From: a bacterium
GTDB lineage: Bacteria; Patescibacteriota; Minisyncoccia; Phycocordibacterales; Phycocordibacteraceae
Length of the DNA stretch: 64,000 nucleotides
NCBI GenBank assembly: GCA_021802705.1
Contig: JAJZRL010000003.1
Span: forward strand, 14,142 to 78,141
Direction: 5' to 3'
In this document: positions 1,544-56,072 of the stretch, one piece after another
Layout: each line of letters starts with the position of its first letter
Position numbering within the stretch: the stretch's first letter is position 1
Translations under genes and position numbers: made by a program
Notes under the pieces: generated by a model
Databases searched by the model: none
Seen by the model: the letters and a program-made list of their open reading frames with translations, nothing else
What the model was told of the DNA's origin: nothing

Positions 1544-1566
1544 GCTTGGCGGTGAAACCGCCAAGC
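1544..1566. repeat. Palindromic hairpin repeat, copy A (GCTTGGCGG-TGAAA-CCGCCAAGC)
   Basis: Perfect 9-bp stem with 5-nt loop in probable intergenic DNA. The same 21-nt core occurs at 33493..33515 and 56034..56072. Confidence 0.7.
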
Positions 1567-1663
1567 AAAAATCTCGATTCTTCGGTTTCGTCTTTATCCG
1601 TCTCACATTTTGCGGGTTTGAGGCGGATTTGAGCTAACCTGTATCGCACACGTAACAAAAACC

Positions 1664-1715
1664 CTCTGTTCCGGACCGCAAAAGCGATATGGAGACAGAG
1701 GGTGGAAGGCTCGAC
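1664..1715 (-). terminator. Putative terminator of the minus-strand gene 1732..2346
   Basis: On the minus strand, CCCTCTGT...ACAGAGGG stem (8 bp, large loop) followed by TTTTTGTT, immediately 3' of the stop. Confidence 0.4.
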
Positions 1716-1731
1716 TCGGAGCCGTAAAGGA

Positions 1732-2346
1732 TCAGTGAGAGATTATGTAGTTGCCGGGACACCACACGCGCGGATACGAAACCGGAGACGCTTTTATATT
1801 CCATCCTTTCCTGAACCAGAAAGCGTTGATGGCATACGCGAGACCTCTTGCATTTTCTACATAGAAAATGAAGTCTTTGGAGCGGTCCGCCACCTTCAAA
1901 AACTCGAAGACATGCGCAAAGGATACGCGAGCTTTCCTTATCTCCGGAAAGTTTCGGTCGCCAAGGTCGGCAAGGATCGATCTGTCCATCGACGACCTGA
2001 GCAGCCTGTGCTGTCTGACTGTCATAGCCGGGACATTCTCCTCAACAAGGTCGGGAAAACCGATCCTGAGTTCGCTGTCGAGGTAGATGATCGGCAATTC
2101 GCTGTTTACATCTATCCTGAGCTTGTCGCGTACCGCGAAGCGCTTGACCGACGGAAGACCGATCGGATCGCCTGTCTCTTTGAGAAAACCCCCAAGAACC
2201 GTATCCGAAGCGGATTTTCCGGTTTCGACTTCAACAGTCGCTTCACCGCACAGAAACGCGCGGACGGGGCTGCCCGCGCAACCGACCGTCCTGACGCTTG
2301 TTCCGTCATTGGTGAGGCCGGCCATTGCAAATCGATTTTGGGACAT
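1732..2346 (-). CDS. Hypothetical protein (204 aa)
   Basis: AGGAG 3 nt upstream of the ATG (ataggagcatATG) and a terminator-like hairpin plus T-run 3' of the stop. Chosen over the overlapping Arg-rich plus-strand ORF 1702..2502, which has no RBS. Family not recognised. Confidence 0.45.
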   Translation of the reverse strand: MSQNRFAMAGLTNDGTSVRTVGCAGSPVRAFLCGEATVEVETGKSASDTVLGGFLKETGDPIGLPSVKRFAVRDKLRIDVNSELPIIYLDSELRIGFPDLVEENVPAMTVRQHRLLRSSMDRSILADLGDRNFPEIRKARVSFAHVFEFLKVADRSKDFIFYVENARGLAYAINAFWFRKGWNIKASPVSYPRVWCPGNYIISH

Positions 2347-2550
2347 GACATATGCTCCTATGGGCTAACGCCCGTGAATGACTCCTCTCTCCCCGAGGCA
2401 TGGGGGCCTGGCGAGTCGTTCGCCACAGCAGGAAATGGCCGCGTTCAAGCCGCCGCTTCCTGCTGTGGCGAATACCTGTTTGTTCAAAGAGCTTCCAACT
2501 GAGAAAATATAGCCCATTTACGTATAAGTGTCAAATTCTCCAAAGTGGAT

Positions 2551-2579
2551 TTGACATCATAGTTCACCTGTGATATAAG
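2551..2579 (+). promoter_or_regulatory. Sigma-70-like promoter (TTGACA-17 nt-TATAAG)
   Basis: Near-consensus -35 and -10 with a 17-nt spacer, ~90 nt upstream of CDS 2668. Downstream, hairpins CGAGCT-TTTCT-AGCTCG and CCTTCACG...CGTGAAGG abut the RBS. Confidence 0.55.
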
Positions 2580-2667
2580 AGGAATCAGGTCGAGCTTTTC
2601 TAGCTCGTTTATGAACATTCACAACGTTCCTTCACGTCCTTCCCCGTGAAGGATGAGGAGAAACAGT

Positions 2668-3252
2668 ATGGACGCAAGCGTGCTGCAAAACCTGAGCATC
2701 GAGCAAATTATCGATGTTCTCAAAGAGAAAGTGGGCAAAGAAGAGACCGTGCGTTTTCTTCTTCGGGAAAAGATGGGCATCAGTACCGTAAGGCTCGGCA
2801 CAGGACCAAGGAACGCACGGGCGTTTTGCGAAGCTCTGAGTTCCGACGGTTTTTCCATCGATAAAGAGATAAGAGATATTCCCGACTCCCCCGCTCTTAT
2901 AGCGCTCGATAGAGGAATAAACGTCGATGTCGTCGATGTCTCGGTAAAAGATCTGGGATGCCCGGCTGGCGCGCGATACAAAGAAGTCTGCATGCGCGGG
3001 CTTGATCTGGGGTACAGACTCTGTCCTCCCGAGCTCGCTTATCAGTTACGCCGGCAATACGTAAACCAGCCGGTCGGCGAGCGCCTTTATCTTGCGATGA
3101 AGAGCGTTGTCGATTCGTATGGCAACCAAAGAATCTTCGCGGTTGGATGCGACGAGAACGGCCCTTATTTCGGGCTTGATCGCGGCGGTCTCGATGAATT
3201 CTGGTTCGCCAGTCGTCGCTTCGTCTTTATCCGCCCGCGTCGAATGAACTGA
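2668..3252 (+). CDS. Hypothetical protein (194 aa)
   Basis: ATG preceded by GGAGAAACAGT RBS (aggatgaggagaaacagtATG); earlier in-frame codons lack an RBS. No recognisable domain. Confidence 0.55.
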   Translation: MDASVLQNLSIEQIIDVLKEKVGKEETVRFLLREKMGISTVRLGTGPRNARAFCEALSSDGFSIDKEIRDIPDSPALIALDRGINVDVVDVSVKDLGCPAGARYKEVCMRGLDLGYRLCPPELAYQLRRQYVNQPVGERLYLAMKSVVDSYGNQRIFAVGCDENGPYFGLDRGGLDEFWFASRRFVFIRPRRMN

Positions 3253-3265
3253 AATCTTAACCAAG

Positions 3266-3304
3266 CCTCGTATCCGTTCTGTGTTTACGGATACGAGGTT
3301 TTTT
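3266..3304 (+). terminator. Rho-independent terminator
   Basis: CCTCGTATCCGT / ACGGATACGAGG 12-bp stem followed by TTTTTTG. Confidence 0.75.
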
Positions 3305-3415
3305 GTATCCTGTCCGCAGAATCCCACAAGGTGCCAATTTCGGATAAATTTGACTTCTATATGACTGTATGGTATTTGAACATCAGACTTGAACTCAACA
3401 AAAAAGGAGGTAGCT

Positions 3416-3676
3416 ATGGAGGAAGCGTTCTTGCAGCCGAGGTACGTAAACGGAGCAGAAATCGAGATCCGATTCAGCGGGGCCTGGTATGCCGCCACTG
3501 TCATCCGGACGCATGCTTATGTCATCGTATACCGTCTCGAAGAAGAGGGAAAGCGGCAAGCCGGCTTCACACGATACGCATTCGGATTGTTCGAGAAGCC
3601 CTGCTTTATCACGTACCCGAAAGGATACGAGGGGCAGATTAGCCGGTTCAGTCCGAATATCCGTCCCAGGAGATAA
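3416..3676 (+). CDS. Hypothetical small protein (86 aa)
   Basis: aaaaaaGGAGGtagctATG, a strong RBS. No recognisable motif. Confidence 0.55.
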   Translation: MEEAFLQPRYVNGAEIEIRFSGAWYAATVIRTHAYVIVYRLEEEGKRQAGFTRYAFGLFEKPCFITYPKGYEGQISRFSPNIRPRR

Positions 3677-3742
3677 TCCGTAATCAGCGATCATTTCATT
3701 TATCGTGCATCCTGCCTTTTGGCAGGAAAGAAAGGAGCTATC

Positions 3743-3931
3743 ATGGGAAACGCGTTGAGAGAATGCCTTGCAGAGCTTCTCGAACACATGGAAAACCTGA
3801 ATTCAACCTTCCCCGATACGGAGGAATTCTTGAGAAGGAGGGGGTTGGAGAATGTACGCGACCTGAACGAAAGGGAGAGAAAAGAGCTCTTCGAGTTTTT
3901 GGAAACAAGGTACAAAAAACTCTTGAATTAA
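3743..3931 (+). CDS. Hypothetical small acidic protein (62 aa)
   Basis: gaaAGGAGctatcATG RBS, with the hairpin TCCTGCC-TTTT-GGCAGGA just upstream. Confidence 0.5.
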   Translation: MGNALRECLAELLEHMENLNSTFPDTEEFLRRRGLENVRDLNERERKELFEFLETRYKKLLN

Positions 3932-3945
3932 AAACGAAACATGGC

Positions 3946-3974
3946 GCCGCCGGATCCTGGACCGGCGGTTTTTT
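3946..3974 (+). terminator. Rho-independent terminator
   Basis: GC-rich stem CCGCCGG...CCGGCGG followed by TTTTTTG. Confidence 0.7.
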
Positions 3975-4021
3975 GTTGCCGGTTGAAAGTAAAAAGAGCC
4001 ACGAGGGCTCTTTTGATGGAA

Positions 4022-4195
4022 TTACCTTTCACTGTTTTCTTTTTCGGCAAGGAATCGCTCTTCCAAGCGCGCGATCACTTGAGCCGGATCATCGCTTTCT
4101 CCTCTGAGGAAACTTCGGAATGATTCCTGCTCTACCGCAATGACAACTTCTTGCGAGCCATTCAATGAGACGGTATCTATGTTGTCTATCAACAT
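4022..4195 (-). CDS. Hypothetical small protein (57 aa), not in the supplied ORF track
   Basis: Own translation of the minus strand gives MLIDNIDTVSLNGSQEVVIAVEQESF...EKENSER with GAGGAG 7 nt upstream of the ATG. A bidirectional hairpin AGAGCC-ACGAG-GGCTCT flanked by A/T runs sits at 3991..4015. Confidence 0.35.
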   Translation of the reverse strand: MLIDNIDTVSLNGSQEVVIAVEQESFRSFLRGESDDPAQVIARLEERFLAEKENSER

Positions 4196-4445
4196 CACTA
4201 TTCTCCTCTAATTTAAAGAACGCATTGCGCTTGACTGTCCGATCTTTCCGGCCAGTCGTTCGGTACCATACACCCTTTATATGCAGGAGGCAATAGTCTC
4301 TGAGGATCAATATGGGGATTCCCCTACGTGACGCCATTCTGCGTTTCCAAACGTTCCGTTATGTTAGAATCAGCTCACCGGACTTCCCGGGGTCTTCAAT
4401 TGATTATACGTACTTATTATTTACAAGTTAAGTTCATCACACACT

Positions 4446-5102
4446 ATGCGCTTCCTTAAAAACCCTCGTTTCCTTTCCCTCGCGGTCGGTTCCGCCGTCG
4501 CGATGAGCCTTGTCGGAAACATTCCTGTCGCACAAGCGGCAACGCTCAGCACTGTCCAGATACAGGCCATCCTCAATCTCTTGCAGGCATTCAATGCGGA
4601 TGCGACGACGATCGCAAACGTACAAGCCGCGCTCGAAAACACCGCAACGTCCACGCAATCAGTGCTTCCACCGACCGGTTCGAGCTCGGAAGGACAAGCT
4701 TCTTCGTCACCGAGCGGAAGCCCTTGTTTCGTGTTTACGAACACGTTTAGCATCGGCTCTACCGACCGATCAACGGAAGGAGAAGTGTCCCGCCTGCAGG
4801 CCTTCCTCGGGAAATACAAGAGCATCTACCCCGAAGACGCCGTTACCGGCTTCTTCGGATCATCGACCCTGGCAGCCGTACAGAAATGGCAGGCCGAACA
4901 TGGCATCGTTTCATCCGGCAGCCCGGACTCTACCGGATTCGGAACTGTCGGACCATTGACCCGCGAAGACATGAATAAAGAGATGGAAAGAGAATGTGAG
5001 AATGGAGACATGTCCTCGTCTTCCTCCGACTCGACCGCATCCTCTTCTGACTCGTCAACGTCTTCTACGACATCCCAGGATTCGAGCTCGGGAGATAATT
5101 AA
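4446..5102 (+). CDS. Secreted peptidoglycan-binding-domain protein with Ser-rich C-terminus
   Basis: N-terminal signal peptide (AVGSAVAMSLVGNIPVAQA). PG_binding_1-like segment VSRLQAFLGKYKSIYPEDAVTGFFGSSTLAAVQKWQAEHGI. Low-complexity Ser/Thr/Asp tail. Confidence 0.65.
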   Translation: MRFLKNPRFLSLAVGSAVAMSLVGNIPVAQAATLSTVQIQAILNLLQAFNADATTIANVQAALENTATSTQSVLPPTGSSSEGQASSSPSGSPCFVFTNTFSIGSTDRSTEGEVSRLQAFLGKYKSIYPEDAVTGFFGSSTLAAVQKWQAEHGIVSSGSPDSTGFGTVGPLTREDMNKEMERECENGDMSSSSSDSTASSSDSSTSSTTSQDSSSGDN

Positions 5103-5121
5103 TCTTCTCTTCACCCTTAAA

Positions 5122-5158
5122 AACACACTCGCGACTATCGCGAGTGTGTTTTTTATTT
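5122..5158. terminator. Bidirectional rho-independent terminator
   Basis: AACACACTCGCG-ACTAT-CGCGAGTGTGTT, a 12-bp stem flanked by AAAA and TTTTTTATTTT. Serves the convergent genes 4446..5102 (+) and 5153..6745 (-). Confidence 0.8.
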
Positions 5159-6745
5159 TCCCGCCGGGATCGGTAACGTAACGACGAAAGTCGAGCCCTT
5201 CCCTTCCCCTTCGCTTTCAGCGTAGATGGTACCGCCATGAGCGATAACGATGTTCTTCGCGATAAAGAGCCCGTAACCGGTCGAATGGGTGTTTACCCTC
5301 TGCGAGTTTCTGCCATGGCCTCCTTCGGTAAAAAGCCGTTTTTTATCTTCGCCCGTGATGCCGACGCCGGTATCCTTTACGGCAAAGACGAAATTGCCGC
5401 TTTCTCGCTTGAGAGAAACGACGATGGAACCGGAGGGGGTGTAATTGATGGCATTGTCGATGAGATTGCGAAATACGTGATCGCCGATTTCTCCCTTATC
5501 ACCAACGAAAACAAAGGAAGCATCCGAACCGTCTGTAACGAAAGAGAGGTCGAGCCCCTTCTCTTCTGCGCTTGATCTTGCTTTTTCGACTTCTTCTGCC
5601 GCGAGTTGTGCGAGATCGAAAGGTTCTTTCTTATATTCCGTCGTCCCCTTCTTCTGATTCGACGCTTTGAGGATATCGGTAACCGCGACCAAATTCTCGC
5701 GCGATTGAGCGAGAGCGCGATCGACAAAAGGCCTCAATGCGTCCGGAAGAGCGCCGAGATCGCCCTCGGAAAGCGCGGCGAAGGCGCCCGTGTCTTTCGT
5801 GAGGAATCCCTTGACCTCATGCCCGATGAAATGAATGAGGCCTTCCTGCCGCTCGTTTATCTCCTTGAGCTCCTCCGCGAGTTTTTCAAGATTCAACGTA
5901 TCTTGCACGATTCTTACACTTCCAATTAAAACAACAGCAAACGCGGTAATGTTGATAACAATTTCGCTTACACTCGTTGAATATAAAACATTTATGAATG
6001 TAAATACCGTGACCATGAAACCCAAGAAGGCTGTTGTCACGACCTTGAGATTGAAAAGATGGTGGCGGTAGATCGCATACGAGGTTGCAACGACAAATGG
6101 GAGAAGAAATATGGCGCCGAGCGGGATGAAGCTTGAATTGTTAAAAATGACTGGGATAAATAAGTTGAAAATGAGAAGAAGTACGAATGTAATAATCGTT
6201 CCTGTGAGCATCATAGAATATGCTTGGCGTTGTTTTTTTGGCGCTTGAATTGTTTTGCGTATCAGTTTCAAAATTGCAAAAATGACAAGCAGCGAAACCA
6301 GTGTGCCGAAGAACGCGACAGCCGGGCCAGTTTGAACAGCGATAATTTCATTGCCTGTCCCAACAGAAGTCACGCGTTCAAATACATACGGAGTAAGTGT
6401 TAAGACGGATACCACACCGGTAATAGGTATAAGAATATAAGTGTGCCACCAAGGTTGATGGTAGTTGTCATCCGGAAATGCCGATGTTAGATGAAAGAAG
6501 GTAAATGCGTGCCACGTCGCAAAGAAAATCACGCCTCGGAGCAGCAAGAATGCGAAATTCCCATTGGGAAATTGGTAATAAGAATAATTCACTATGCTCC
6601 AAAAAATAGAAATGATTGCGAAGTAAAAAAACGAACGGTTCGTCGTCGAACGAGCATTATTAAAAACAATGACAAAACCAAGAAGACCCATGCTGGCAAC
6701 CGCTATACCGACAAAAAGAAGATCGAGATGAGAAGATAGCTGCAT
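5153..6745 (-). CDS. Sensor histidine kinase with multi-pass (about 7 TM) N-terminal domain
   Basis: ~300 aa of hydrophobic helices, then a HisKA-like H-box (FIGHEVKGF) and HATPase_c motifs (NLIDNAINYT, DTGVGI, GYGLFIAKNIVIAHGG). No response regulator adjacent. Last gene of the ThiF-like/nitroreductase operon (3-nt gaps). Confidence 0.8.
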   Translation of the reverse strand: MQLSSHLDLLFVGIAVASMGLLGFVIVFNNARSTTNRSFFYFAIISIFWSIVNYSYYQFPNGNFAFLLLRGVIFFATWHAFTFFHLTSAFPDDNYHQPWWHTYILIPITGVVSVLTLTPYVFERVTSVGTGNEIIAVQTGPAVAFFGTLVSLLVIFAILKLIRKTIQAPKKQRQAYSMMLTGTIITFVLLLIFNLFIPVIFNNSSFIPLGAIFLLPFVVATSYAIYRHHLFNLKVVTTAFLGFMVTVFTFINVLYSTSVSEIVINITAFAVVLIGSVRIVQDTLNLEKLAEELKEINERQEGLIHFIGHEVKGFLTKDTGAFAALSEGDLGALPDALRPFVDRALAQSRENLVAVTDILKASNQKKGTTEYKKEPFDLAQLAAEEVEKARSSAEEKGLDLSFVTDGSDASFVFVGDKGEIGDHVFRNLIDNAINYTPSGSIVVSLKRESGNFVFAVKDTGVGITGEDKKRLFTEGGHGRNSQRVNTHSTGYGLFIAKNIVIAHGGTIYAESEGEGKGSTFVVTLPIPAGK

Positions 6746-6748
6746 AAA

Positions 6749-7816: not shown

Positions 7817-7819
7817 ATT

Positions 7820-8941: not shown

Positions 8942-9020
8942 GTTGAAATAGTAGCACGGGAACTCACGTTATTAGAACGGAGGCTGAGAAACCCCTTGAA
9001 CTCAGACACCCTGTGCAGTG

Positions 9021-9054
9021 CACGGATAAAGAAACGCCCGACGAATCGGGCGTT
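9021..9054 (-). terminator. Terminator of the ClpP-like gene
   Basis: AACGCCCGA-CGAA-TCGGGCGTT stem followed on the minus strand by TCTTTAT. It separates 9073..9615 from the ThiF-like operon. Confidence 0.65.
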
Positions 9055-9072
9055 ACAAAAAGAACTCAATCA

Positions 9073-9615
9073 TTATGATTTTGGCAACGAGACTATCTCA
9101 TGTGCGAAACCTAACTTGATCGCCTGATCCGCATCGAGAGTCCTCTCGTTGCGAAGAATCAGCTTCGCCTCCTTCTTGCTCGTCTTGCCGCCAGTCCTTT
9201 CTTCAATGATTCGGAAATATTTCCCTTCCTCAACCAGAAGTTCTTTCTGCATCCGTTCGGCATCGAGAGTGTCGATCTTGACTTTTTCGTCAAAACTCTG
9301 ACTCATATGGTGAAACCATAGAGTCGTTTCTGGCGTGATCACTCGATGATCGCCCATTAGATACAACAGAGGCGCGATAGAGGCAAGCCTGCCGAGTGCT
9401 ACTGTTTGAAGCTTTGGGCGAAGAATGTGGCGAACAAGTTCATATATGGCAAAGGCAGGACTTACCTTGCCGCCACCCGAGCATATAAACAAAGAGATCC
9501 AGTTTCCGCGATTTTCAAGCATCGATTTGCTGAGATCCCCGCCGAGTTTCTCCATACTCCTTCCGTTGACTTCATCAAAGAAGGTTGTTATTTGCGACGG
9601 ACTGCATTGGTGCAT
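9073..9615 (-). CDS. ClpP-like (S14 family) serine peptidase homologue, stand-alone, 180 aa
   Basis: ICSGGGKVSPAFAIYELV resembles ClpP INSPGG-SVTAGLAIYDTM. Ser in GRLASIA, His in WFHHM and a candidate Asp are retained. AAGGAG RBS upstream. No clpX nearby. Confidence 0.55.
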   Translation of the reverse strand: MHQCSPSQITTFFDEVNGRSMEKLGGDLSKSMLENRGNWISLFICSGGGKVSPAFAIYELVRHILRPKLQTVALGRLASIAPLLYLMGDHRVITPETTLWFHHMSQSFDEKVKIDTLDAERMQKELLVEEGKYFRIIEERTGGKTSKKEAKLILRNERTLDADQAIKLGFAHEIVSLPKS

Positions 9616-9652
9616 GATTTCTCCTTAATCCGTGAGTGAAAGAACTGGGGAA

Positions 9653-22479: not shown

Positions 22480-23643
22480 ATGAGCTTCCTTTTCTTCGTC
22501 AACATCCTTGCACTGCTCTTTTCCTTCTTCGTCATCGGAGCTCTTTTGGGCGCCGCTTTCTCAAAACCTTTCCGGAAAAAGCTGCTCGGGCGCCTGCAAG
22601 AGTACCGTTTCCTCCTTACCCGATCCGTCCGCAACCCGATCCTTATGCCGGGCGCGACGCCATGGACCGCCGAGGCGGTCTTGAATCCGGCGGCTATCGT
22701 TCTCGGAGGCAGGACCCATCTCGTCTATCGTGCCATCGGCATGGACGGCGTATCGCGGCTCGGCTATGCCTCAAGCGGGGAAGGATTCATCTTCGATGAT
22801 CGGCCTCCCTACCCTGTCTATGTCGTTCAGAATCCGCGGAATAGCAAAGGCGGGGTGCGCCGGTATTCCCCCGTCCTTTATCCTTCAGGCGGAAGCTGGG
22901 GCGGCTGCGAAGATCCGCGCATGGTCGCTATAGACGGACAGATTTACGTCACCTACAACGCATTTGACGGATGGGACTTCATCCGCGTCGCTTTCACCTC
23001 CATTTCCGAGGAGGACTTCCTCGCAAAGCGTTTTTCGAGATGGAGCGCGCCAAAACTCCTTTCGCCGGAAGGCGAACGTCATAAGAACTGGGTCTTATTC
23101 CCTGAAAAAATAAACGGAAAGTTCGCCATTCTTCATAACCTGCACACCACTGACCCGAACCATGTTTGCGTCGAATATATCGACGACCTTGCAGCATACG
23201 ATCCGAAACGGAACCCCATCAAGAGCGCCGATCCGGCGGCGACTCCTCCCCGCGCGATCGCGTGGCACCACCGCATGCGCAGCGCCGGACCGCCGCCGGT
23301 AAAGACAGAGTACGGATGGCTCGTCCTCTATCATGCGACAAGCGAGAATGAGGGTCATCGTTACAAGCTCGGTGCGATGCTCCTCGACCTTCAAGACCCG
23401 ACAAAAGTGCGGGCGCGCGCGCAAGCTCCGATCCTCGCTCCGGACGAGCATTACGAGAACAACGGCAAACCGGGTATCGTCTATGCCTGTGGCGCTGTCG
23501 TACGAGACGATACCCTTTTCGTTTATTACGGAGGGGCCGATAAGGTCGTCTGCGTCGCGACTTCGCCGCTCAAGACGTTCCTCGATGCGCTCCTCGAAGA
23601 AGACAGTCCTTCGCTTTCCCCTCAGGCAGCTCGAATCAGCTGA
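22480..23643 (+). CDS. GH130-family (DUF377) glycoside hydrolase/phosphorylase-like protein with N-terminal TM helix
   Basis: GCEDPRMV motif, beta-propeller repeats, and LYHATSENEGHRYKLGAMLLDLQDP typical of GH130. Confidence 0.7.
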   Translation: MSFLFFVNILALLFSFFVIGALLGAAFSKPFRKKLLGRLQEYRFLLTRSVRNPILMPGATPWTAEAVLNPAAIVLGGRTHLVYRAIGMDGVSRLGYASSGEGFIFDDRPPYPVYVVQNPRNSKGGVRRYSPVLYPSGGSWGGCEDPRMVAIDGQIYVTYNAFDGWDFIRVAFTSISEEDFLAKRFSRWSAPKLLSPEGERHKNWVLFPEKINGKFAILHNLHTTDPNHVCVEYIDDLAAYDPKRNPIKSADPAATPPRAIAWHHRMRSAGPPPVKTEYGWLVLYHATSENEGHRYKLGAMLLDLQDPTKVRARAQAPILAPDEHYENNGKPGIVYACGAVVRDDTLFVYYGGADKVVCVATSPLKTFLDALLEEDSPSLSPQAARIS

Positions 23644-23652
23644 TCACGCTAT

Positions 23653-25563
23653 ATGTTCATCGTCCGCCGAGAACCGCATAACCCGATACTCTCCCCTCAG
23701 CACGAGCGGCCGTGGGAAGCTATCGCGACATTCAATCCTTCAGCCGTGAGAACGGGAGAAGGTGTGCGGCTTTATTATCGCGCGCTCGGTAACCCGGACG
23801 CGCTCCAGACGCCGCATGCCGGCCTTTCGACAGTCGGAACGGCTTTTGCCGAAGACGGCGTCCATTTCCACTCGCGACGGCAGGTGCTGGCGCCGGAAAC
23901 CGACTGGGACCGCTTCGGCTGTGAAGACCCGCGCGTGACGTTCTTCGAAGGCCGGTGGTATTGCTTCTATACGGCGCTTGGCGGCTATCCTTTCGGGCCG
24001 GAAAATATCAAGGTCGGTCTTGCTATCGGAGACGCTCCCGAGCATTTCATCGAACGCCACCTCATCACGCCGTTTAACGCGAAAGCGGCGACTCTTTTCC
24101 CCGAGCGCGTAGACGGCGACATCATCCTGCTCCTTACCGCGCACACCGACTGGACAGCCGAACATCCGCGTCCGACCATCGCGCTTGCCCGCGCGAAACG
24201 CATCGAGGACTTCTTCGATCCGAGCTACTGGCAACGCTTTCACGAACGGCTTGCCGAACACGCGCTTCCGGAACTGCGGCGTATCGACGGCGACCACATC
24301 GAGGTCGGCGCGTCGCCGGTCAAGACCGAAAAAGGATGGCTTCTCGTGTATTCCTACATTCAGGATTACTACGATGAACGGAAACGGCTCTTTTCCATCG
24401 AAGCGGCGCTGCTTGACGCGAACGATCCTCAAAAACTCATTTCGCGTACCGAATCGTTTCTCGTCCCCGAAGAGGCATATGAACGTTACGGCATCATACC
24501 GAACATCGTCTTCCCGGCGAGCGCGACCAGCAACGGCGACCGGCTGGATATCTGGTACGGAGCTGCTGATACCGTCTGTGCGAAAGCGAGCGTCCGGCTC
24601 GCCGACCTCTTACGCGCGCTTGATCCGGAGAAGCCGGCGCGCACCTTCACGCGCGCTCCAGAGAATCCCATCCTCAAGCCGCGCGATGGGTTCGAGAGCC
24701 GCGCGGTATTCAATGCCGCGGCGTTTGATCTTGACGGAGCCGTCCATATCCTCTATCGCGCGATGGATGCCGATAACACCTCAACCATAGGCCTTGCCAT
24801 CTCGAAGGACGGGATCACTGTCGACGAACGTCTTCCAAGCCCGATATACGCTCCACGCGCCGATTTCGAACAGAAGAAAGGCAGTCCGACAGGAAACTCC
24901 GGCTGCGAAGATCCGCGGATTGTCCGTATCGACGACACCCTTTATCTTACCTATACCGCGTACGACGGCGTGCATGCGCCCGCCGGGGCGTTTTCATCAA
25001 TAAGCGTGGAGGATTTCCGCGCGAGGCGGTTCGACCGCTGGAGCGCTCCGCTTCTCCTTACGCCAGAGGGGTTCGACGACAAGGACCTCGCCCTGCTTCC
25101 CGCGAAACTGGACGGGAACTATCTGCTCTACCACCGCATCAACAATCAGATTTGCGCCGACCTCGTGCCGGACCTCGCTTCGGGGAAACGCGTAAGCCGC
25201 TGCATCACGATCATCGAGCCTCGGCGCGGCATGTGGGACGGGGTCAAGGTCGGCAGTGCGGCGCCTCCCGTCAAGGTCGGCGACAACTGGCTCATGATCT
25301 ATCACGGGGTTTCGCGCCACGCGACCTACCGCCTCGGCGCGGCATTGCTCGACCCTTCGGGCATAGAAGTCCTCGCGCGTTCCGCCGATCCGCTTTTTGA
25401 ACCGCTCGAGCCTTACGAGAAGGAAGGCGAAGTCGCAAACGTCGTCTTCTCGTGCGGAACCGTCGTCCGGGGCGACGAGCTCCTCCTCTATTATGGCGGC
25501 GCCGACAAGGTTACGGGAGTGGCGACCGCTTCTCTTCATCATATCCTTGCTGCCCTCTCATGA
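23653..25563 (+). CDS. Tandem-duplicated GH130-family protein (two GH130 modules, 636 aa)
   Basis: Two copies of the GH130 signature: FGCEDPRVTFFEGRWY...KTEKGWLLVYSY... and NSGCEDPRIVRIDDTLYL...GDNWLMIYHGVS... Confidence 0.7.
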   Translation: MFIVRREPHNPILSPQHERPWEAIATFNPSAVRTGEGVRLYYRALGNPDALQTPHAGLSTVGTAFAEDGVHFHSRRQVLAPETDWDRFGCEDPRVTFFEGRWYCFYTALGGYPFGPENIKVGLAIGDAPEHFIERHLITPFNAKAATLFPERVDGDIILLLTAHTDWTAEHPRPTIALARAKRIEDFFDPSYWQRFHERLAEHALPELRRIDGDHIEVGASPVKTEKGWLLVYSYIQDYYDERKRLFSIEAALLDANDPQKLISRTESFLVPEEAYERYGIIPNIVFPASATSNGDRLDIWYGAADTVCAKASVRLADLLRALDPEKPARTFTRAPENPILKPRDGFESRAVFNAAAFDLDGAVHILYRAMDADNTSTIGLAISKDGITVDERLPSPIYAPRADFEQKKGSPTGNSGCEDPRIVRIDDTLYLTYTAYDGVHAPAGAFSSISVEDFRARRFDRWSAPLLLTPEGFDDKDLALLPAKLDGNYLLYHRINNQICADLVPDLASGKRVSRCITIIEPRRGMWDGVKVGSAAPPVKVGDNWLMIYHGVSRHATYRLGAALLDPSGIEVLARSADPLFEPLEPYEKEGEVANVVFSCGTVVRGDELLLYYGGADKVTGVATASLHHILAALS

Positions 25564-33065: not shown

Positions 33066-33176
33066 GCTCGTAGCATACTCCGTACATTCGTCAGTCCGGC
33101 GGCTTTCCTTGAGACATGTGGAGAACGGGCCGGCAGCGCCCCTTGTCGCGAAATGCTGCTGCTATACTGGGATGTG

Positions 33177-34871
33177 ATGGACAATGCGGCTTCCCTTAAA
33201 AAAGAACTCGAGGACGTTTTGGCGGGCGAGGTATCGGATGACGAGACCGCACTCAAGAAAGCGAGCCGCGACACCTCTCTCTTCGTGCGGATGCCGAAAC
33301 TTGTGGTATGCCCGAAAGACACGGCGGATGTAAGCGTTCTCGTGAAAAAGGTCCGTGCGGCCGCGGATAACGGCGCAAGCATTGCGCTCGCGGCGCGCGC
33401 GGCCGGAACCGATATGTCGGGCGGACCGCTCACCACCGGTATCGTCGTCTCTTTTACCGAGCATATGAATCGCGTGCTCGAGGTTTCCTCCGACTTGGCG
33501 GTGAAACCGCCAAGTGGCTATGCGGTCACCGAACCCGGCGTCTATTACCGCGATTTCGAGAAGGCGACTCTCGAGAAAGGATATCTCCTGCCTTCCTACC
33601 CCGCGAGCCGCGAGCTCGCGGCGATGGGCGGCATCATCGCGAACAATTCCGGCGGCGAGCGAACGCTCGAATACGGCAAGACCGAAAAATATGTCGAGGA
33701 GCTCGATGTCGTTCTTTCGGACGGTTCGACGTGCACGTTCAAAGCGCTCACGCCGGATGAGCTTTCAGGAAAAAAGAAACTCGAGACGCTCGAAGGCGAT
33801 ATTTACCGGAAAATGGACACGCTGCTTAACGAACATGCCGAACTCATCGAAAAGCATCGCCCGAGCGTTTCAAAGAATTCCGCCGGCTATGCGCTCTGGA
33901 GCATACGGGACCGTGCAAAAGGAACCTTCAATCTCGCGAAGCTCATCTGCGGGTCGCAAGGCACGCTCGCGCTCTGGACAAAAGCGAGGCTCTCTCTGGT
34001 AAAACCGAAAGAACATCGGGCGATGCTGGTCATCTTCCTGTACGATCTCTCGCTTCTGCCTGAAATCGTAAAACGCGTCCTTCCCGAAAATCCCGAGTCG
34101 TTCGAGTCGTACGATAATCACACCTTCGAGCTTGCGGTGAGATTCCTTCCGGAAATGCTCATGCAGATGGGTTTTGCAAAAGCGGCCCGGCTCGGCATCG
34201 ACTTCGTCGCCGAAGCGGCCATGGTCGCGACCGGCGGCGTACCGAAAATGATTCTCATGGCCGAATTCGCCGAAGATACGCTCGAAGAAGCGGACCGGAA
34301 AGCGCTTTTGGCGCAGCAATCGCTTGCCGGCCTCCACGTGCAAACAAGGATAGAAAAAAATGAAAAGGAATCCGAGAAATACTGGATCGTACGCCGTGAA
34401 AGCTTCTCGCTTTTGCGGAAGAATCTTCGTGGCATGTACGCCGCGCCCTTTATTGACGATTTTGTCGTCCCTCCCGAACGCTATCCTGAATTCCTCCCGA
34501 AACTGGACGAGCTGCTCGATGAGTACAAATCGCATTTCGTCTATACGATTGCCGGTCACGTCGGCAACGGCAATTTCCATATCATCCCGCTCATGGATCT
34601 CTCCAAAGAAGAGAACAGGAACGTCATCCTTGAGCTTGCGCCGAAAGTCTACGAGCTTGTGATACGCGAGGGCGGCACGACGACCGGCGAGCACAACGAC
34701 GGGATCATACGTACGCCGTATCTTCCGATGCTTTTCGGGAGCGAGATGGTTGCTCTCTTCGCGGAAACGAAGGAGATCTTCGATCCGCAGAATATCTTCA
34801 ATCCCGGCAAGAAGGTGGGCGGCAGCTTCGCCGCGATAAAAGAAGATATGATTACGACGGTAACGCCATAA
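33177..34871 (+). CDS. FAD-linked oxidase (FAD_binding_4 / GlcD-D-lactate-dehydrogenase-like)
   Basis: PCMH FAD-binding domain (...RAAGTDMSGGPLTTGIVVSF...PSGYAVTEPGVYYRDFEKATLEKGYLLPSYPASRELAAMGGIIANNSGG) and C-terminal FAD-oxidase domain. Start placed at MDNAAS; an alternative MLLLYWDV lies 24 nt upstream. The 5' ORF extension to 32724 overlaps minus-strand genes and is rejected. Confidence 0.75.
   Translation: MDNAASLKKELEDVLAGEVSDDETALKKASRDTSLFVRMPKLVVCPKDTADVSVLVKKVRAAADNGASIALAARAAGTDMSGGPLTTGIVVSFTEHMNRVLEVSSDLAVKPPSGYAVTEPGVYYRDFEKATLEKGYLLPSYPASRELAAMGGIIANNSGGERTLEYGKTEKYVEELDVVLSDGSTCTFKALTPDELSGKKKLETLEGDIYRKMDTLLNEHAELIEKHRPSVSKNSAGYALWSIRDRAKGTFNLAKLICGSQGTLALWTKARLSLVKPKEHRAMLVIFLYDLSLLPEIVKRVLPENPESFESYDNHTFELAVRFLPEMLMQMGFAKAARLGIDFVAEAAMVATGGVPKMILMAEFAEDTLEEADRKALLAQQSLAGLHVQTRIEKNEKESEKYWIVRRESFSLLRKNLRGMYAAPFIDDFVVPPERYPEFLPKLDELLDEYKSHFVYTIAGHVGNGNFHIIPLMDLSKEENRNVILELAPKVYELVIREGGTTTGEHNDGIIRTPYLPMLFGSEMVALFAETKEIFDPQNIFNPGKKVGGSFAAIKEDMITTVTP
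33493..33515. repeat. Palindromic hairpin repeat, copy B (ACTTGGCGG-TGAAA-CCGCCAAGT), in-frame inside the FAD-oxidase CDS
   Basis: Same 21-nt core as 1544..1566 and 56034..56072; encodes LAVKPPS within the FAD-binding domain. Confidence 0.7.
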
Positions 34872-45405: not shown

Positions 45406-49137
<3,732 letters not shown>

Positions 49138-49167
49138 AGGGATGTGAAAAGGTTGCGGATAATAACG

Positions 49168-52100: not shown

Positions 52101-52350
52101 CATACGTGCGCATGTTTTCGCGGGCAAACCCCTCATCGTACTTCGGCTCGCCCATTTCGAGATTTTCGAAATGAAGCTCGAACTTCCTCCCGGAATAGTC
52201 GGTAATCGGCGAGAACTCTTTCAACAGCTCCTTAAAACCATCCTTGAGGAGCCAGTCGAACGAGACGCGCTGATGTCCCACGAGATCAGGAAATGACACG
52301 AGTGGTGCTCGATAAGCGCCGAACGTTTTTTGGACGAGGTTCTTATGCAT
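49168..52350 (-). CDS. rpoB: DNA-directed RNA polymerase subunit beta
   Basis: ~1060 aa with conserved beta-subunit blocks (GRHGNKGV, rifampicin-cluster region, C-terminal MLTIKSDD). The ORF-track start is a TTG; the first ATG (MHKNLVQ) is at 52350. Confidence 0.95.
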   Translation of the reverse strand: MHKNLVQKTFGAYRAPLVSFPDLVGHQRVSFDWLLKDGFKELLKEFSPITDYSGRKFELHFENLEMGEPKYDEGFARENMRTYEAPIKASIKLINKTLGSEKSQELFLADMPIMTPHGSFIVSGVERAIVPQLARSFGAFFVSEIIRGRQYFGAKIIPLRGVWIEIDSEADGAIFVRIDRKRKFPITELLTVFGGGIREAALKHFEDDPRALAALQATLVHDEAKSIEEAYIEIHRRMRDGDLTTPENAKNFVQALFSAERYDLGKVGRHRLNARFGLPTSEKALEKRTLSLADFVRIIKEITALNEDPSARPDDIDHLGFRRVRFVGELLQSRMRIGMSRMKRNIQDRMSTIESETTLPMALVNPRPFQASVHEFFTANQLSQFMDQQNILAELENMRTFSALGPGGLTRERAGFEVRDVHPSHYGRLCPIHTPEGQNIGLILHMATHARTNDFGVIETPYVRVKNGKASGDIVYLNALDEENEIIAHGATKLDDDGRIVPDSVEARHKGEPVIVAREAVTLMDASTYQMFSIATSMIPFVNHDDANRALMGSNMQKQATPVLIPEAPLVATGVEAHAARSTGRLILAEEAGEVTYVDARAIVVKNKDEKAKEYRLQGLTQTNQNSAFMQRPSVRVGEKVKKGDVLADNSSTDQGQLALGQNVRVAFMSWNGANYEDAIVISERLVEDAKFTTVHIEDFDCIVRDTKLGPETTTHDIPNVGELRLKNLDEEGVIRIGAEVRPGDILVGKVTPKGETQLTPEERLLRSIFGDKAKDVKDTSLRMEGGKRGRVIGVRVFSREKGDQLESGIIKKIIVTVAQVRNVSVGDKLAGRHGNKGVISRVLPVADMPYDKDGNPVDILLTPLGVPSRMNLGQILEMHLGLAAHTLGYQAIVPPFAGATADEIRDELQAAGFSRSGKMKLYDGRTGDAFAQEIAVGYMYILKLHHMVEDKIHMRSIGPYSLITQQPLGGKAQNGGQRFGEMEVWALLGYGAAYTLREMLTIKSDDIQGRSAAFDAIVKDETISHTGTPASFSVLTNQIRGLALDVEPMNLPPADTSDA

Positions 52351-52540
52351 GATCGTTGACGGGTGAAGCAAACCGAATAATGAATGAAAATCTTATATAA
52401 ATACAAACGCACGGACACGAATCCGCTCTCGCGTTTTTCCAGCTCACTTATATGCAAGTTGTCGCCCTCCGTGACTCACTCGTATCTGATGCCTGTAGTG
52501 TACCAGACCACCCCTCCCGAGCGCAAGCGGTTGGGGATAA

Positions 52541-53191
52541 TCACTTCTTGGATCGCCAGGAATCGATCTTCGCGTGATGGCCGGTCTTAAGGACGGCGGG
52601 AATCTTGTACTTTTTCTTTTTATACAAAATAGTTTCGGGGCGGGTGTAGACGGCGGCGGAGGCGATGCGACGCTCTTCGACGGAAGCGTCCTTGCCGAGG
52701 ACGCCCGGGAGGCGGCGGGTCACCGCGTCGACGACCGCCATTGCCGGGAGCTCGCCGCCGGTATAGACAGCTTCGCCGACCGCATATTCTTTCACCGGCG
52801 CGACGGTCTTTAGGATTTTTTTCGCGCGTTCATCGATGCCTTCGTACCGCCCGCAGACAAGCACGATATCGTGATATCGCGCGAGCCTGTCGGCTTCTTT
52901 GTTGGTAAATTGCTTCGCGCTCGGGCTAAACCAGACGATGACGCTCTTTTCTTTCTTCTTGCCTCCAAGCGCCTTTGTGACCGCTCTCACCACCGGCATA
53001 GCCTGCATCACCATGCCCGGCCCGCCGCCATACGGACGTTCATCGACTTTCCCCCACGCGTTATCGACGAAATCGCGCGGATTCCGATACGCTATCGATA
53101 CTTTCTTCCCTTTTCGGGCACGACCGAGAATGGACGCCGAAAGATATGCTTCGCACGCCTCCTCGAAAAGAGTGATGATGTGGAGTTTCAC
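52541..53191 (-). CDS. trmD: tRNA (guanine37-N1)-methyltransferase
   Basis: SPOUT knot motifs (VWFSPSAKQF, LVCGRYEGIDER, YTRPE). Confidence 0.85.
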   Translation of the reverse strand: MKLHIITLFEEACEAYLSASILGRARKGKKVSIAYRNPRDFVDNAWGKVDERPYGGGPGMVMQAMPVVRAVTKALGGKKKEKSVIVWFSPSAKQFTNKEADRLARYHDIVLVCGRYEGIDERAKKILKTVAPVKEYAVGEAVYTGGELPAMAVVDAVTRRLPGVLGKDASVEERRIASAAVYTRPETILYKKKKYKIPAVLKTGHHAKIDSWRSKK

Positions 53192-53193
53192 GC

Positions 53194-53490
53194 TTACAGC
53201 TCGTCGACTACCTGATCGACGGTTTTCTCATGCTCGCGAGGGCTACCGACCGGCTCATTGATCTTCAGATTGACGCGAGCGCTGCTTTTCATCCCGACAA
53301 CCCTCAAGAGGATACGGAGCGCCTCGGCGGTCTTGCCGCTCTTCCCGATGATCTTGCCCATGTCGTCCGGATGCACGGTGAGCGTGAGGAGTACGCCCAT
53401 CTGATCAATGGTGCGAGTCGTCTCGACCGCTTCGGGATGATCGACAAGCGCACGCACTGCGTATTCGAGAAATGCTTGGTCTGGTTCCAT
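53194..53490 (-). CDS. KH-domain RNA-binding protein (YlqC/UPF0109-like)
   Basis: GKIIGKSGKTAEALRILL (KH GxxG loop). Conserved position between rpsP and trmD. Confidence 0.7.
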   Translation of the reverse strand: MEPDQAFLEYAVRALVDHPEAVETTRTIDQMGVLLTLTVHPDDMGKIIGKSGKTAEALRILLRVVGMKSSARVNLKINEPVGSPREHEKTVDQVVDEL

Positions 53491-53556
53491 GGTGAAGATT
53501 TTAACACTTCTGACCTCTCCTCTGTATGCGTGGAGGGGCGGGCGGCCCCTCTCCGC

Positions 53557-54000
53557 TTAAACCGCCTCGGGTTCAACCGGCACCTCTTGTTCGGCCGGAA
53601 CGGGCGCGTCGGCGGTTTCTTGCGACGCTTCCGCAGCTTCCTCTGCCGGAGCCGTTTCCGTTGCGGAAGACGCCTTTTCTGGCATAGGCGCCGGCGCCTG
53701 GGCCGCCGGCTCTTCCTTCTTTTTGAGCGGGGTCTTTTTCGGAAGAGCGTTCACTTTTTTCCCTTCGGTAATCCCCTTGCTTATAAGAAGGTTGTGGATC
53801 GAATCGGTCGGCTGGGCGCCATGAGAAATCAGCTCCTTCACGCGCGCTTCGTTCAAGGTAAGCGCCTTGCTTTTCGGATTGTAGGTGCCAAGCAGCTCGG
53901 TGATGCCGCCGGCCTTCGCCGCCCGCGCTTTTTCCAAAAGCACGATGCGAAACGCCGGATCATTGGTCCGGCCGATGCGTTGAAATCGGATCCTCAACAT
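53557..54000 (-). CDS. rpsP: 30S ribosomal protein S16 with ~65-aa Ala/Pro/Glu-rich C-terminal extension
   Basis: MLRIRFQRIGRTNDPAFRIVLLEKARA...LGTYNP matches the S16 core; low-complexity tail. Confidence 0.85.
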   Translation of the reverse strand: MLRIRFQRIGRTNDPAFRIVLLEKARAAKAGGITELLGTYNPKSKALTLNEARVKELISHGAQPTDSIHNLLISKGITEGKKVNALPKKTPLKKKEEPAAQAPAPMPEKASSATETAPAEEAAEASQETADAPVPAEQEVPVEPEAV

Positions 54001-54083
54001 GGAGGCGACTATAGCAGAAGCTTCGTAATATTGCTAGAGTAGCTATCGTGACAAGCAAACGACTCTACGAAGGACCGATAACG

Positions 54084-56036
54084 ATGACCAAGAAAGGTAT
54101 CGGGTTTTTCTCTTTCGACGAAGAGAAAGAAGACCTCATTATCCCGCCGGAATGGACGAACCATGCTCTCGCGGGCGACATCGTGAAGGTAGAGCCTGTC
54201 GGGGATTACCGCGATCCGTTCGGTCGCATGCCGCCTCGCTCTGCAGGAAAGGTCGTTGCGATAGTCTCCCGCGCCCGTGAGACATTCGTCGGTACGCTCA
54301 TGGAAGAAGCCGGGAAGGCGCTGCTCGCGCCCGATTACAAAAAGATGCATGTTCCGCTCGAAATTCGGGACTGGAAAGTCAGACTTTCCGAACTCGGAAA
54401 GTCTGACTTTCCAGCCGGTTACAAGGTGCTCGTGCGTATGAAAGGCTGGGAAGAGGGCGCGGCGTATCCGTGGGGCGTCATCGAGGATATTATCGGCAAG
54501 GCTGGCGTGCATGAGACCGAGATGCGTGCTCTCGCCTTGGGTCAGGGATTCTCAAGCGACTTCCCTCCTGGCGTTAAGAGCGAAGCAAAACGCCTTGAGG
54601 AAAATGGCGCCGCGTTGCTTGAAGCGGAAATCACGGATGCCGCTCGATCCGGGCGGCGCCGCGATTTCAGAAACGTTACCACCTGCACCATCGACCCCTT
54701 CGATGCGAAGGACTTCGACGATGCGCTTTCGGTCCGGAAACTCGATGCCGACATGGTCGAAGTCGGCGTGCATATCGCCGATGTTTCCTTTTTCGTGAAG
54801 CCCGACAGCGCGCTTGATAAAGAGGCGCGGGAACGCGCGACGAGCGTCTACCTCGTCGACCGCACTATCCCGATGCTCCCTGAAATCCTCTCGAACGATC
54901 TCTGCTCGCTTAAGCCGGAAGAAGACCGGCTCGCCGTCTCCGCCGTCTTCACGCTCGACCGCGACGCCAACATAAAAGAAGCGTGGTTCGGCGAAACCGT
55001 CATTCATTCTGACAAGCGCTTCACCTACGAAAACGCGCAGGAGGTGCTTGATGCCGGTTCCGGTAGTCTCCACGAAGAGCTTGCGACGCTTCTCGATCTC
55101 TCGAAGAAGATCCGTGCGCGACGCCAGGCGAAGGGCGCTATCGAATTCGATACCGCCGAAGTGAAGGTCGAGCTCGACGAGGCGGGCAAGCCCGTCGCTA
55201 TCCGTCTCAAAGAACGCAAGGCGACCAACCTTCTTATCGAAGACTTCATGCTCCTCGCGAATGAAGCCGTGGCGAAGCATCTCTCCGAACTTACCGCAAA
55301 CGGCGGTCCGCACTTCTCGTCGCTCTATCGCGTCCACGACGAACCCGACGCCGACCGTATCGAAAACCTCGCGAACCTCCTGCGCGTTATGGGCTACCGC
55401 TTGGAAACCTCGGGCAGAGGGAAGGTCACCGGAGCCGAGCTGAACAAGCTTCTCGAGACGGTGAGAGGCACGCCTGAGGAATACCTCGTAAAGACAGCGA
55501 CGCTGCGCTCGATGAGCAAGGCTATCTACGCGACACGCAATATAGGCCACTTCGGTCTTGCCTTCGAGTATTACACCCACTTTACCTCGCCGATCCGCCG
55601 CTACCCCGACCTCATCATTCACCGGCTCGTGAAAGCGCACACGGGCGGCAGCCCGATTACTGAACGTGAGATGCGGGAGTTCGATGCGCTTGCGATCCAC
55701 TCCTCCGAACGCGAAGTCGCCGCGGCGGACGCCGAACGCGACTCGGTCAAGATGAAACAAGTCGAATTCCTCGCAGGCCGCATCGGAGAAGAGTTTAATG
55801 CGGTTATCTCCGGCGTCACCGAACGCGGCCTCTATGTCGAAGAGCAAACGACGCATGCCGACGGCATGATCCGCATCAAAGACGTCGGCGACGATTATTT
55901 CGAATACGACGAAAAACATTACCGGCTTGTCGGACGCCGTACGAAAAAAACGTACCGGCTCGGCGACCCTGTCAAAGTGAAGCTCATCGCCGCCCGTATC
56001 CCTGAAAAGGAACTGGATTTCGTGCCGGTGCCGTAA
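54084..56036 (+). CDS. rnr: Ribonuclease R (RNB family 3'-5' exoribonuclease)
   Basis: Cold-shock-like N-domains, RNB catalytic domain (DDALSVRKL..., HFGLAFEYYTHFTSPIRRYPDLIIHR), C-terminal S1 domain. Start at MTKKGIGFF with GAAGGA RBS. Confidence 0.9.
   Translation: MTKKGIGFFSFDEEKEDLIIPPEWTNHALAGDIVKVEPVGDYRDPFGRMPPRSAGKVVAIVSRARETFVGTLMEEAGKALLAPDYKKMHVPLEIRDWKVRLSELGKSDFPAGYKVLVRMKGWEEGAAYPWGVIEDIIGKAGVHETEMRALALGQGFSSDFPPGVKSEAKRLEENGAALLEAEITDAARSGRRRDFRNVTTCTIDPFDAKDFDDALSVRKLDADMVEVGVHIADVSFFVKPDSALDKEARERATSVYLVDRTIPMLPEILSNDLCSLKPEEDRLAVSAVFTLDRDANIKEAWFGETVIHSDKRFTYENAQEVLDAGSGSLHEELATLLDLSKKIRARRQAKGAIEFDTAEVKVELDEAGKPVAIRLKERKATNLLIEDFMLLANEAVAKHLSELTANGGPHFSSLYRVHDEPDADRIENLANLLRVMGYRLETSGRGKVTGAELNKLLETVRGTPEEYLVKTATLRSMSKAIYATRNIGHFGLAFEYYTHFTSPIRRYPDLIIHRLVKAHTGGSPITEREMREFDALAIHSSEREVAAADAERDSVKMKQVEFLAGRIGEEFNAVISGVTERGLYVEEQTTHADGMIRIKDVGDDYFEYDEKHYRLVGRRTKKTYRLGDPVKVKLIAARIPEKELDFVPVP
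54371..54414. repeat. 44-bp perfect palindrome (21-bp arms, 2-nt centre) inside the rnr coding sequence
   Basis: CTGGAAAGTCAGACTTTCCGA-ac-TCGGAAAGTCTGACTTTCCAG. Each arm is itself palindromic. The same peptide WKVRLSE(L/F)GKSDFP is encoded on both strands (see antisense ORF 54009..54512). Confidence 0.8.
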
Positions 56037-56072
56037 ACCCAACTTGGCGGTGAAACCGCCAAGTTGGGTTTA
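56034..56072 (+). repeat. Palindromic hairpin repeat, copy C (17-bp stem AACCCAACTTGGCGG-TGAAA-CCGCCAAGTTGGGTT), overlapping the rnr stop codon
   Basis: Contains the same CTTGGCGGTGAAACCGCCAAG core as copies A and B, extended to a 17-bp stem. No T-run follows. Confidence 0.75.

Follow-up and report, generated by a model that had tools for sequence, protein, structure and literature searches.

A 21-nt palindrome, CTTGGCGGTGAAACCGCCAAG, occurs three times in a 64,000-nt stretch of a Patescibacteria genome (GCA_021802705.1, contig JAJZRL010000003.1, positions 14,142 to 78,141), termed the window here. It is in all likelihood a miniature element of the repetitive extragenic palindromic (REP) type belonging to the Paceibacteria/Parcubacteria lineages of Patescibacteria, and the cognate hairpin of a REP-associated tyrosine transposase (RAYT) of the Y1/HUH class. 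Direct support for this reading comes from the way the repeat is distributed, its link to RAYT genes, compensatory variants of the stem, the precise presence or absence of 21 nt at a conserved site, and the nesting of one hairpin within another. The three copies in the window are:

1545..1565, + strand: REP-type copy 1, an exact 21-mer; flanking bases extend its stem to 11 bp (1543-1567)
33494..33514, + strand: REP-type copy 2, a 21-nt in-frame insertion in an oxidase gene, read as LAVKPPS (residues 115-121 of the protein, P0001)
56034..56072 (21-mer at 56043-56063), + strand: REP-type copy 3, with flanks TAAACCCAA / TTGGGTTTA and an 18-bp stem starting at the stop codon of rnr

All three copies are exact and carry the GAA loop on the + strand, and no other site in the window matches the 21-mer within 3 mismatches. 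The chance expectation for the window is 0, as no match arose in 100 dinucleotide-preserving shuffles, which bears out the claim of a first-pass annotation of this DNA that three identical 21-nt palindromes could not recur by chance. When folded, the unit has a stem of 9 bp and a loop of 3 nt (RNA, -13.8 kcal/mol; DNA, -9.8 kcal/mol; z = -5 to -7); at copy 2, neighboring bases bring the stem to 10 bp. The same annotation had located the correct sites, with ranges that each take in one flanking base per side, and had rightly seen a palindromic hairpin; its TGAAA loop, though, is closed by a T-A pair, so that only GAA is unpaired. That TGAAA always lies on the plus strand is true of the window copies but means little, as copies in other genomes are commonly found either way round. 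Among the hairpins of the window, the 21-mer is the sole recurring one. It fits no known RNA family: an Rfam scan at the gathering threshold returned only tRNA-Asn.

The 21-mer is confined to one bacterial group but widely spread within it. In a species-level scan (one genome per species, 185,579 species, 596 Gb), for which about 0.3 chance matches are expected, it was found in 84 stretches from 38 assemblies besides that of the window. All 38 are Patescibacteria, with GC contents of 32-60% and 1-12 copies each, giving 97 copies outside the window. A lack of further copies had been named in advance as grounds for abandoning the idea of a dispersed element; instead, roughly 100 additional exact copies are present in the related genomes. 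Loci from these genomes, designated by L-numbers, were fetched as 8-kb pieces. Across the 100 exact copies of the window and related genomes, on which the statistics of flanks, frames and base runs are based, the base immediately before the unit is A in 94% and the base immediately after it is T in 96%. With further flanking positions included, the consensus becomes Y-C-A on one side and T-G-R on the other, and the stem begins CTTG. Nested or adjacent copies occur in seven loci (L006, L030, L036, L046, L047, L066 and L067).

A candidate for what mobilizes the repeat is the gene found beside it. In ten fetched loci, tblastn identified a gene of 210-230 aa adjoining the hairpin (L007, L009, L011, L029, L032, L045, L048, L054, L081 and L082). 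The hairpin lies on both flanks of this gene in L007, L011, L048, L054, L081, L173 and L174, and on at least one flank in L029, L032 and L082. At L011, for example, the 220-aa open reading frame (ORF; 3961-4623) has one exact copy 24 nt upstream of the frame and another 3 nt past the stop codon, as well as two internal in-frame copies read as FGGETAK and LGGETAK. Such internal copies occupy two fixed positions, at about codons 60 and 152, in L007, L011, L048, L081, L173 and L174; both positions lack a hairpin in the L054 gene.

Homologues of the encoded protein number more than 1,000 in databases, several of them named by JGI as "REP element-mobilizing transposase RayT". The protein matches the Pfam family Y1_Tnp, as do most homologues in precomputed annotation, and retains the motifs YHxYNRG, NH[FY]H (the HUH motif), Y..YFN..R.G.LFQG.F and SAY[IV]NLN, of which NH[FY]H and the tyrosine of SAY[IV]NLN (Y142 in P0123, a candidate catalytic residue) are invariant. 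The NCBIfam model REP_Tyr_transpos ("REP-associated tyrosine transposase") matches all 24 members examined (best E 2e-12), all of them below its 80-bit equivalog cut-off, and the IS200 model matches 3 of the 24. Searches of the PDB with the sequence or a profile gave marginal matches only. With an AlphaFold2 model (pLDDT 85), the top Foldseek match in the PDB was 4ER8 (E 9.5e-7), a complex of the REP-associated tyrosine transposase of E. coli with a REP hairpin, followed by the TnpA proteins of IS608 and ISDra2. The first intragenic hairpin peptide falls in a disordered segment of this model. Judged by its motifs and predicted fold, the protein is a RAYT-type Y1/HUH transposase, closer to RAYT than to IS200 TnpA. 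One RAYT locus per genome was seen among the fetched 8-kb pieces. In assembly JAHJXC01, L009 (at a contig start) and L045 (at a contig end) carry what look like complementary fragments of one RAYT gene ending at the hairpin; the repeat probably breaks short-read assemblies.

The sequence of the hairpin also varies together with the transposase. At the RAYT locus of L081, the form CTTGGAGGCC[C/G]GGCCTCCAAG is present four times. L173 has four copies of CTTGGACGTCCGACGTCCAAG (CTTGGACGTCCGAC[G/A]TCCAAG), the one at codon 61 reading ...GACATCCAAG with one stem mismatch, and L174 has four of CTTGGGAGT(TCC/GGA)ACTCCCAAG. In each of these three loci, the four copies are those of both flanks and both internal positions. 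At L029 and L048, variants of the type CTTGGAGGC/T... are mixed with the main 21-mer at the same RAYT locus. The variants keep the outer CTTGG/CCAAG, and changes in the inner stem are compensated, with pairs 6-16 and 9-13 covarying. Moreover, 58 of 120 RAYT homologue proteins contain one or two hairpin peptides, and where there are two, they mostly represent the same variant (LGGEASK twice, LGRPTSK twice or LGSSTPK twice, for example). In a Kaiserbacteria genome (L081 and L087), the variant of the RAYT locus is also found in the oxidase, in the very loop that holds the main variant in the window. On this sequence evidence, the presence, in most genomes, of four same-variant copies per RAYT gene points to concerted evolution or self-recognition.

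An arrangement of hairpin, transposase and hairpin could also mean that the hairpins are immobile on their own and are simply the solo ends, or footprints, of an excised IS200-like insertion sequence (IS). The identical hairpins that bracket the gene, about 24-36 nt upstream of its start and 3-7 nt past its stop, do resemble IS ends, and the neighborhood of the transposase gene varies between genomes. Nevertheless, we consider this quite unlikely. Two genomes with 11-12 copies have a single RAYT locus each (L007 and L029) in the hairpin-bearing stretches fetched, and excision of IS200/IS605 elements is normally seamless, leaving no hairpin behind. Furthermore, the nesting of one hairpin in another implies that the hairpin itself inserts, and filled and empty versions of the oxidase site differ by exactly the 21-mer.

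This last comparison concerns copy 2, whose host gene is:

33153..34871, + strand: FAD-linked oxidase gene, 572 aa, with FAD_binding_4 and FAD-oxidase_C domains

As the first-pass annotation had proposed, copy 2 lies in frame within the FAD-binding domain, where it is read as D-LAVKPPS-G inside FAD_binding_4. Hundreds of close homologues are found in Patescibacteria metagenome-assembled genomes (MAGs) labeled Minisyncoccota, Kaiserbacteria or Paceibacterota. An identical 572-aa oxidase, LAVKPPS included, is encoded on contig DAHVXN010000001.1 (GCA_027356665.1) and in an independent Logan assembly of SRR13189623, so copy 2 is not an assembly artifact. Orthologues with the same residues at the same positions and no indel would have spoken against insertion, but most orthologues lack the residues: in 66 of the 120 closest, LEVG-x-[DGSNT][YF]A runs on uninterrupted, and the closest relatives of all (83-84% identity) are among them. 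At the DNA level, the empty site of L085 is gtt ggc GA^T GGT tac, and its counterpart in the window is gtt tcc tcc GA[21-mer]T GGC tat. What sets the window apart is 21 nt cleanly inserted between A and T; a difference of one codon farther upstream is unrelated. In a tree of oxidases built without the insert segment, P0001 alone is filled within its clade.

Elsewhere in the oxidase family, the same loop has been filled in other ways. Other lineages carry the flipped form LAVSPPS, the variants LAVEPPS, LEARPPS and LGVRPPS, and tandem doubles (P0080 and P0083). Peptides such as VGRTTSYM are compatible with a different 21-nt hairpin, GTAGGACGT-ACG-ACGTCCTAC, a sequence that occurs in fetched loci. 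As flipped, variant, double and unrelated hairpins all appear in one loop, the oxidase loop is, to judge from these sequences, a recurrent landing site. As modeled by AlphaFold2, the oxidase has its seven residues of REP origin in a loop, predicted with low confidence, that lies between two strands. TrmD has a loop that behaves likewise with two hairpin families, and in TsaD, the REP is present at one site in two genomes with its loop flipped. The TsaD pair (L001:2511 and L004:6179) and an oxidase pair (window 33494 and L028:1237) have the same stems with the 3-nt loop inverted (GAA/TTC), which could reflect independent insertions in opposite orientations or an inversion by template switching. 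The loop peptides of four oxidases (P0015, P0099, P0111 and P0120) are compatible with a GTAGGAC-type hairpin family; this family consists of 21-nt units with a variable inner stem and loop and the classical GTAG tag (for example, GTAGGACGT-ACC-ACGTCCTAC in L111) and is seen in the TrmD loop of L111 and L100. At least one other family that hits these protein loops, GTGGGAC..., has units of 21 nt as well.

The length and composition of the unit favor its survival in genes. Its 21 nt equal seven codons, and five of its six reading frames are open, so an insertion never shifts the frame and rarely adds a stop codon. Of 100 copies, 49 lie inside open frames of at least 150 codons, a few of which may be spurious ORFs (e.g., L043, where the copy has terminator-like flanks). 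The intragenic readings are LGGETAK (22), LGGFTAK (5), LAVKPPS (9) and LAVSPPS (13), and orientation is weakly biased, with 31 copies GAA-sense and 18 TTC-sense. The possibility that LGGETAK or LAVKPPS is a selected peptide motif was rejected: the same DNA is read in four combinations of frame and orientation and is present outside ORFs too.

Taken together with the known enzymes of this class, these observations suggest how the element might move. It is very probable that the RAYT binds the hairpin. By analogy with E. coli TnpA-REP and the TnpA of IS200/IS605, the RAYT would recognize the folded hairpin when the DNA is single-stranded, cut at the foot of the stem and rejoin the 21-nt unit elsewhere in either orientation, preferentially between the A and T of a (C)A^T(G)-like sequence. 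In gene-dense genomes, copies would then survive in permissive protein loops (such as copy 2), just past stop codons (copy 3) or in decaying genes (copy 1). Catalysis by the RAYT and this insertion chemistry, as well as the presence of a RAYT elsewhere in the source genome, are inferred.

A recognition signal unrelated to transposition, such as a DNA-uptake sequence or the operator of a conserved DNA-binding protein, is a further possibility. In its favor, the 21-mer is identical across genomes of 32-60% GC whose RAYTs are only about 57% identical, implying strong sequence-specific constraint. However, its density of about 1 per 20 kb in the window is far below that of typical uptake sequences, indels at orthologous sites show insertion rather than evolution in place, the stem has many variants with compensatory changes, and linkage to an HUH transposase is tight. 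Such a signal is a very improbable explanation.

Copy 3 raises a different question, namely whether the hairpins serve the host as structural elements. The features around it are:

54048..56036, + strand: RNase R gene (rnr), with RNB, OB, CSD2 and S1 domains; copy 3 lies directly 3ʹ
56079..56103, no strand assigned: terminator-type hairpin of 13 bp, not a REP, between the convergent rnr and SMC-like genes

The first three stem bases of copy 3 are the TAA of rnr, confirming the overlap with the stop codon that the first-pass annotation had noted; its 17-bp stem is in fact a perfect 18-bp stem, with arms at 56034-56051 and 56055-56072. The hairpins might be intrinsic terminators or stabilizers of mRNA 3ʹ ends selected by the host, their association with RAYT genes being incidental. 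The position of copy 3 and the stability of its region (-53.6 kcal/mol, z -9.5) are what such elements would show. Elsewhere, 10 of 100 copies have an A-run on one side and a T-run on the other, in the manner of bidirectional terminators, and another 16 are bordered by a run on one side; this roughly one quarter of copies may double as terminators. Additionally, where orthologous sites are filled, genomes agree in all 18 bases of the stem but only to 75-84% in the flanks, indicating that copies are either under selection or continually renewed. Yet about half of all copies lie in ORFs, in either orientation and two frames, and the same sequence flanks, interrupts and co-varies with a transposase gene in many genomes. 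The GC-rich stem with a T-run directly behind it that defines an intrinsic terminator is not seen at any copy in the window. The first-pass annotation was right that no copy is followed directly by a T-run, but 7 nt beyond copy 3 stands the separate 13-bp hairpin at 56079-56103, which is shared with the convergent SMC-like gene, so that rnr has a terminator-type hairpin of its own. Host-selected structure as the primary explanation is thus unlikely; for some copies, a structural role is best regarded as secondary and exapted. The same holds for the RNA-processing, stability and protein-binding roles that had been proposed earlier, which are possible in addition but do not account for the distribution of the repeat. 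The proposal of a REP-like or Rickettsia palindromic element (RPE)-like miniature palindrome that tolerates in-frame insertion, by comparison, is supported by that distribution, by the oxidase indel and by the association with RAYT genes.

Several further observations concern terminator-like copies and rnr. Two orthologous intergenic copies (L043:3014 and L060:2992) are flanked by A-runs and T-runs and resemble bidirectional terminators; between them, the first pair outside the 21-mer is switched from A:T to G:C, preserving the extended stem. Downstream sequence is readable at about 75 orthologous rnr 3ʹ ends, and this REP is present at none of them. At three loci (L110, L133 and L139; L134 duplicates L133), a different hairpin, ...GGACAT-loop-ATGTCC..., without a GTAG start, follows the rnr stop codon. 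A pre-existing palindrome at the rnr 3ʹ end was considered as the source of the copy 3 flanks and rejected, as the intergenic regions are unalignable and no orthologue has one. Within the rnr ORF, positions 54371-54414 form a perfect 44-nt palindrome of two adjacent inverted hairpins, GGAAAGTC[A/T]GACTTTCC, encoding WKVRLSELGKSDFP, at a point where RNase R orthologues are 9 aa shorter. From its sequence, this looks like a second, different in-frame palindromic insertion, akin to a REPIN-like doublet; neither the rest of the window nor 172 loci yielded a further one.

Copy 1 lies next to a disrupted gene:

1446..1536, + strand: remnant of a 72-aa membrane-protein gene, orthologous to L172:3634-3852; an extra C lies near 1487, and the remnant ends just before copy 1

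The first-pass annotation had called this copy intergenic, but it does not lie in plain intergenic DNA: it is 8 nt past the end of homology to the membrane-protein gene, which is frameshifted and truncated at about 1536. That orthologue also disposes of the idea that copy 1 is read as LAVKPPS within an intact small ORF. Upstream, a DUF389 gene is frameshifted and split over two frames (848-1018 and 963-1439), and mscL, the next gene in the related loci L171 and L172, is missing from the window. The region 848-1700 has undergone either local gene decay or MAG consensus errors, and copy 1 possibly lies in decaying sequence, where a deletion junction is possible. Farther along the window, at 22480-25563, two tandem paralogous Glyco_hydro_130-type genes give rise to direct repeats spaced by 1998 bp (families D2 and D4); the pair is also present in L085.

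The best-known counterparts of this system are the proteobacterial REP/RAYT pairs, that is, the REP-BIME elements of E. coli with YafM (PDB 4ER8) and the REPIN-RAYT systems of Pseudomonas. As in Patescibacteria, a short, GC-rich hairpin is dispersed through the genome, an IS200-like Y1/HUH gene is flanked by its own hairpin (an arrangement termed a REPtron), RAYTs have genome-specific hairpin variants, and copies often lie just past stop codons; 4ER8 is the best structural match. The patescibacterial unit differs in its fixed length of 21 nt, in the two in-frame copies held by the RAYT ORF, in one REP common to RAYTs that are about 57% identical, and in a protein that scores under the NCBIfam equivalog cut-off. 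Of the features that characterize the proteobacterial systems, the hairpin, the flanked RAYT, the RAYT fold and co-variation are present, whereas the GTAG tag, the extragenic location and the doublet are absent.

These absences, along with several other findings, weigh against the assignment to a REP/RAYT system. The 21-mer lacks, at its foot, the GTAG/CGTC tag of classical REP superfamilies. About half of the copies are in ORFs, so that they are not predominantly extragenic. The window copies are singlets, and elsewhere there are a few adjacent or nested pairs and no REPIN-type doublets. Copy numbers are low, at 1-12 exact copies per genome as opposed to tens to hundreds for classical REPs. 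Palindromic flanks of at least 4 bp beyond the 21-mer are found in 27% of copies (copy 3 included) and in 0.5% of controls, which a simple cut-and-paste model does not predict. Moreover, the window and L085 provide the single clean pair of filled and empty sites at the DNA level, and within the 20 kb covered, the L173 and L174 variants are confined to the RAYT locus. Finally, tblastn found no RAYT homologue in the 64-kb window, so that the partner gene is presumed for the source genome.

Other mobile palindromes share some of these properties. RPEs are selfish palindromes of about 100-150 bp from an alphaproteobacterial lineage that insert in frame into conserved genes and are tolerated in surface loops; no transposase is known for them. 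They have in-frame insertion in common with the 21-mer but differ in length and sequence, so the resemblance is functional only. The small dispersed repeats (SDR) of heterocystous cyanobacteria, reportedly described by Elhai and colleagues in 2008, are palindromic mobile repeats of about 21-27 nt, nested and inserted into conserved genes, and they too are not known to have a cognate transposase. They come from a different phylum and have different sequences. Elements of the IS200/IS605 family (IS608 and ISDra2) share the HUH/Y1 fold and hairpin recognition with the patescibacterial system and give the second-best structural matches. In these elements, the hairpins mark the two ends of a multi-copy unit that moves in one piece; the patescibacterial gene, by contrast, is apparently single, and only its hairpin is scattered through the genome. 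Good descriptions of RAYT biology exist (PMC5581495). REPs with GTAG/CGTC tags are known to lie wholly within protein genes and to be translated as short inserts (Di Nocera et al. 2013, PMC3733652, which also mentions RPE-4 and RPE-6 of Rickettsia). Those intragenic copies have other tags and are a minority within mostly extragenic families, in contrast to the patescibacterial 21-mer, which is about half intragenic. A literature search, which fell short of all journals, found no paper on REP/RAYT in Patescibacteria or containing the 21-mer sequence.

Beyond the identity of the element, a broader and more tentative view, to which we give slightly less than an even chance, is that a RAYT system runs throughout the Patescibacteria, with hairpins molded into codon-neutral units (21 nt, with five of six frames free of stops) that spread mainly through protein loops, as intergenic space is scarce. 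On this view, the same permissive loops of housekeeping enzymes (the oxidase, TrmD, TsaD and RNase R) are hit repeatedly. The two fixed copies within the RAYT gene, evolving in concert with those of its flanks, would then reflect self-recognition or autoregulation, or else an ongoing RAYT-driven replacement of old copies.

The REP/RAYT system is understood mostly from Proteobacteria, where the repeats lie between genes, and intragenic REPs have already been documented in other phyla. A REP family of seven codons would show a selfish or semi-domesticated repeat adapting to ultra-compact genomes. It would account for short, patchy loop insertions in conserved proteins of the candidate phyla radiation, which might otherwise be taken for lineage-specific features or alignment noise, and for some MAG contig breaks. 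As a small, defined pair of hairpin and transposase, it would also be suited to work on the specificity of HUH enzymes.

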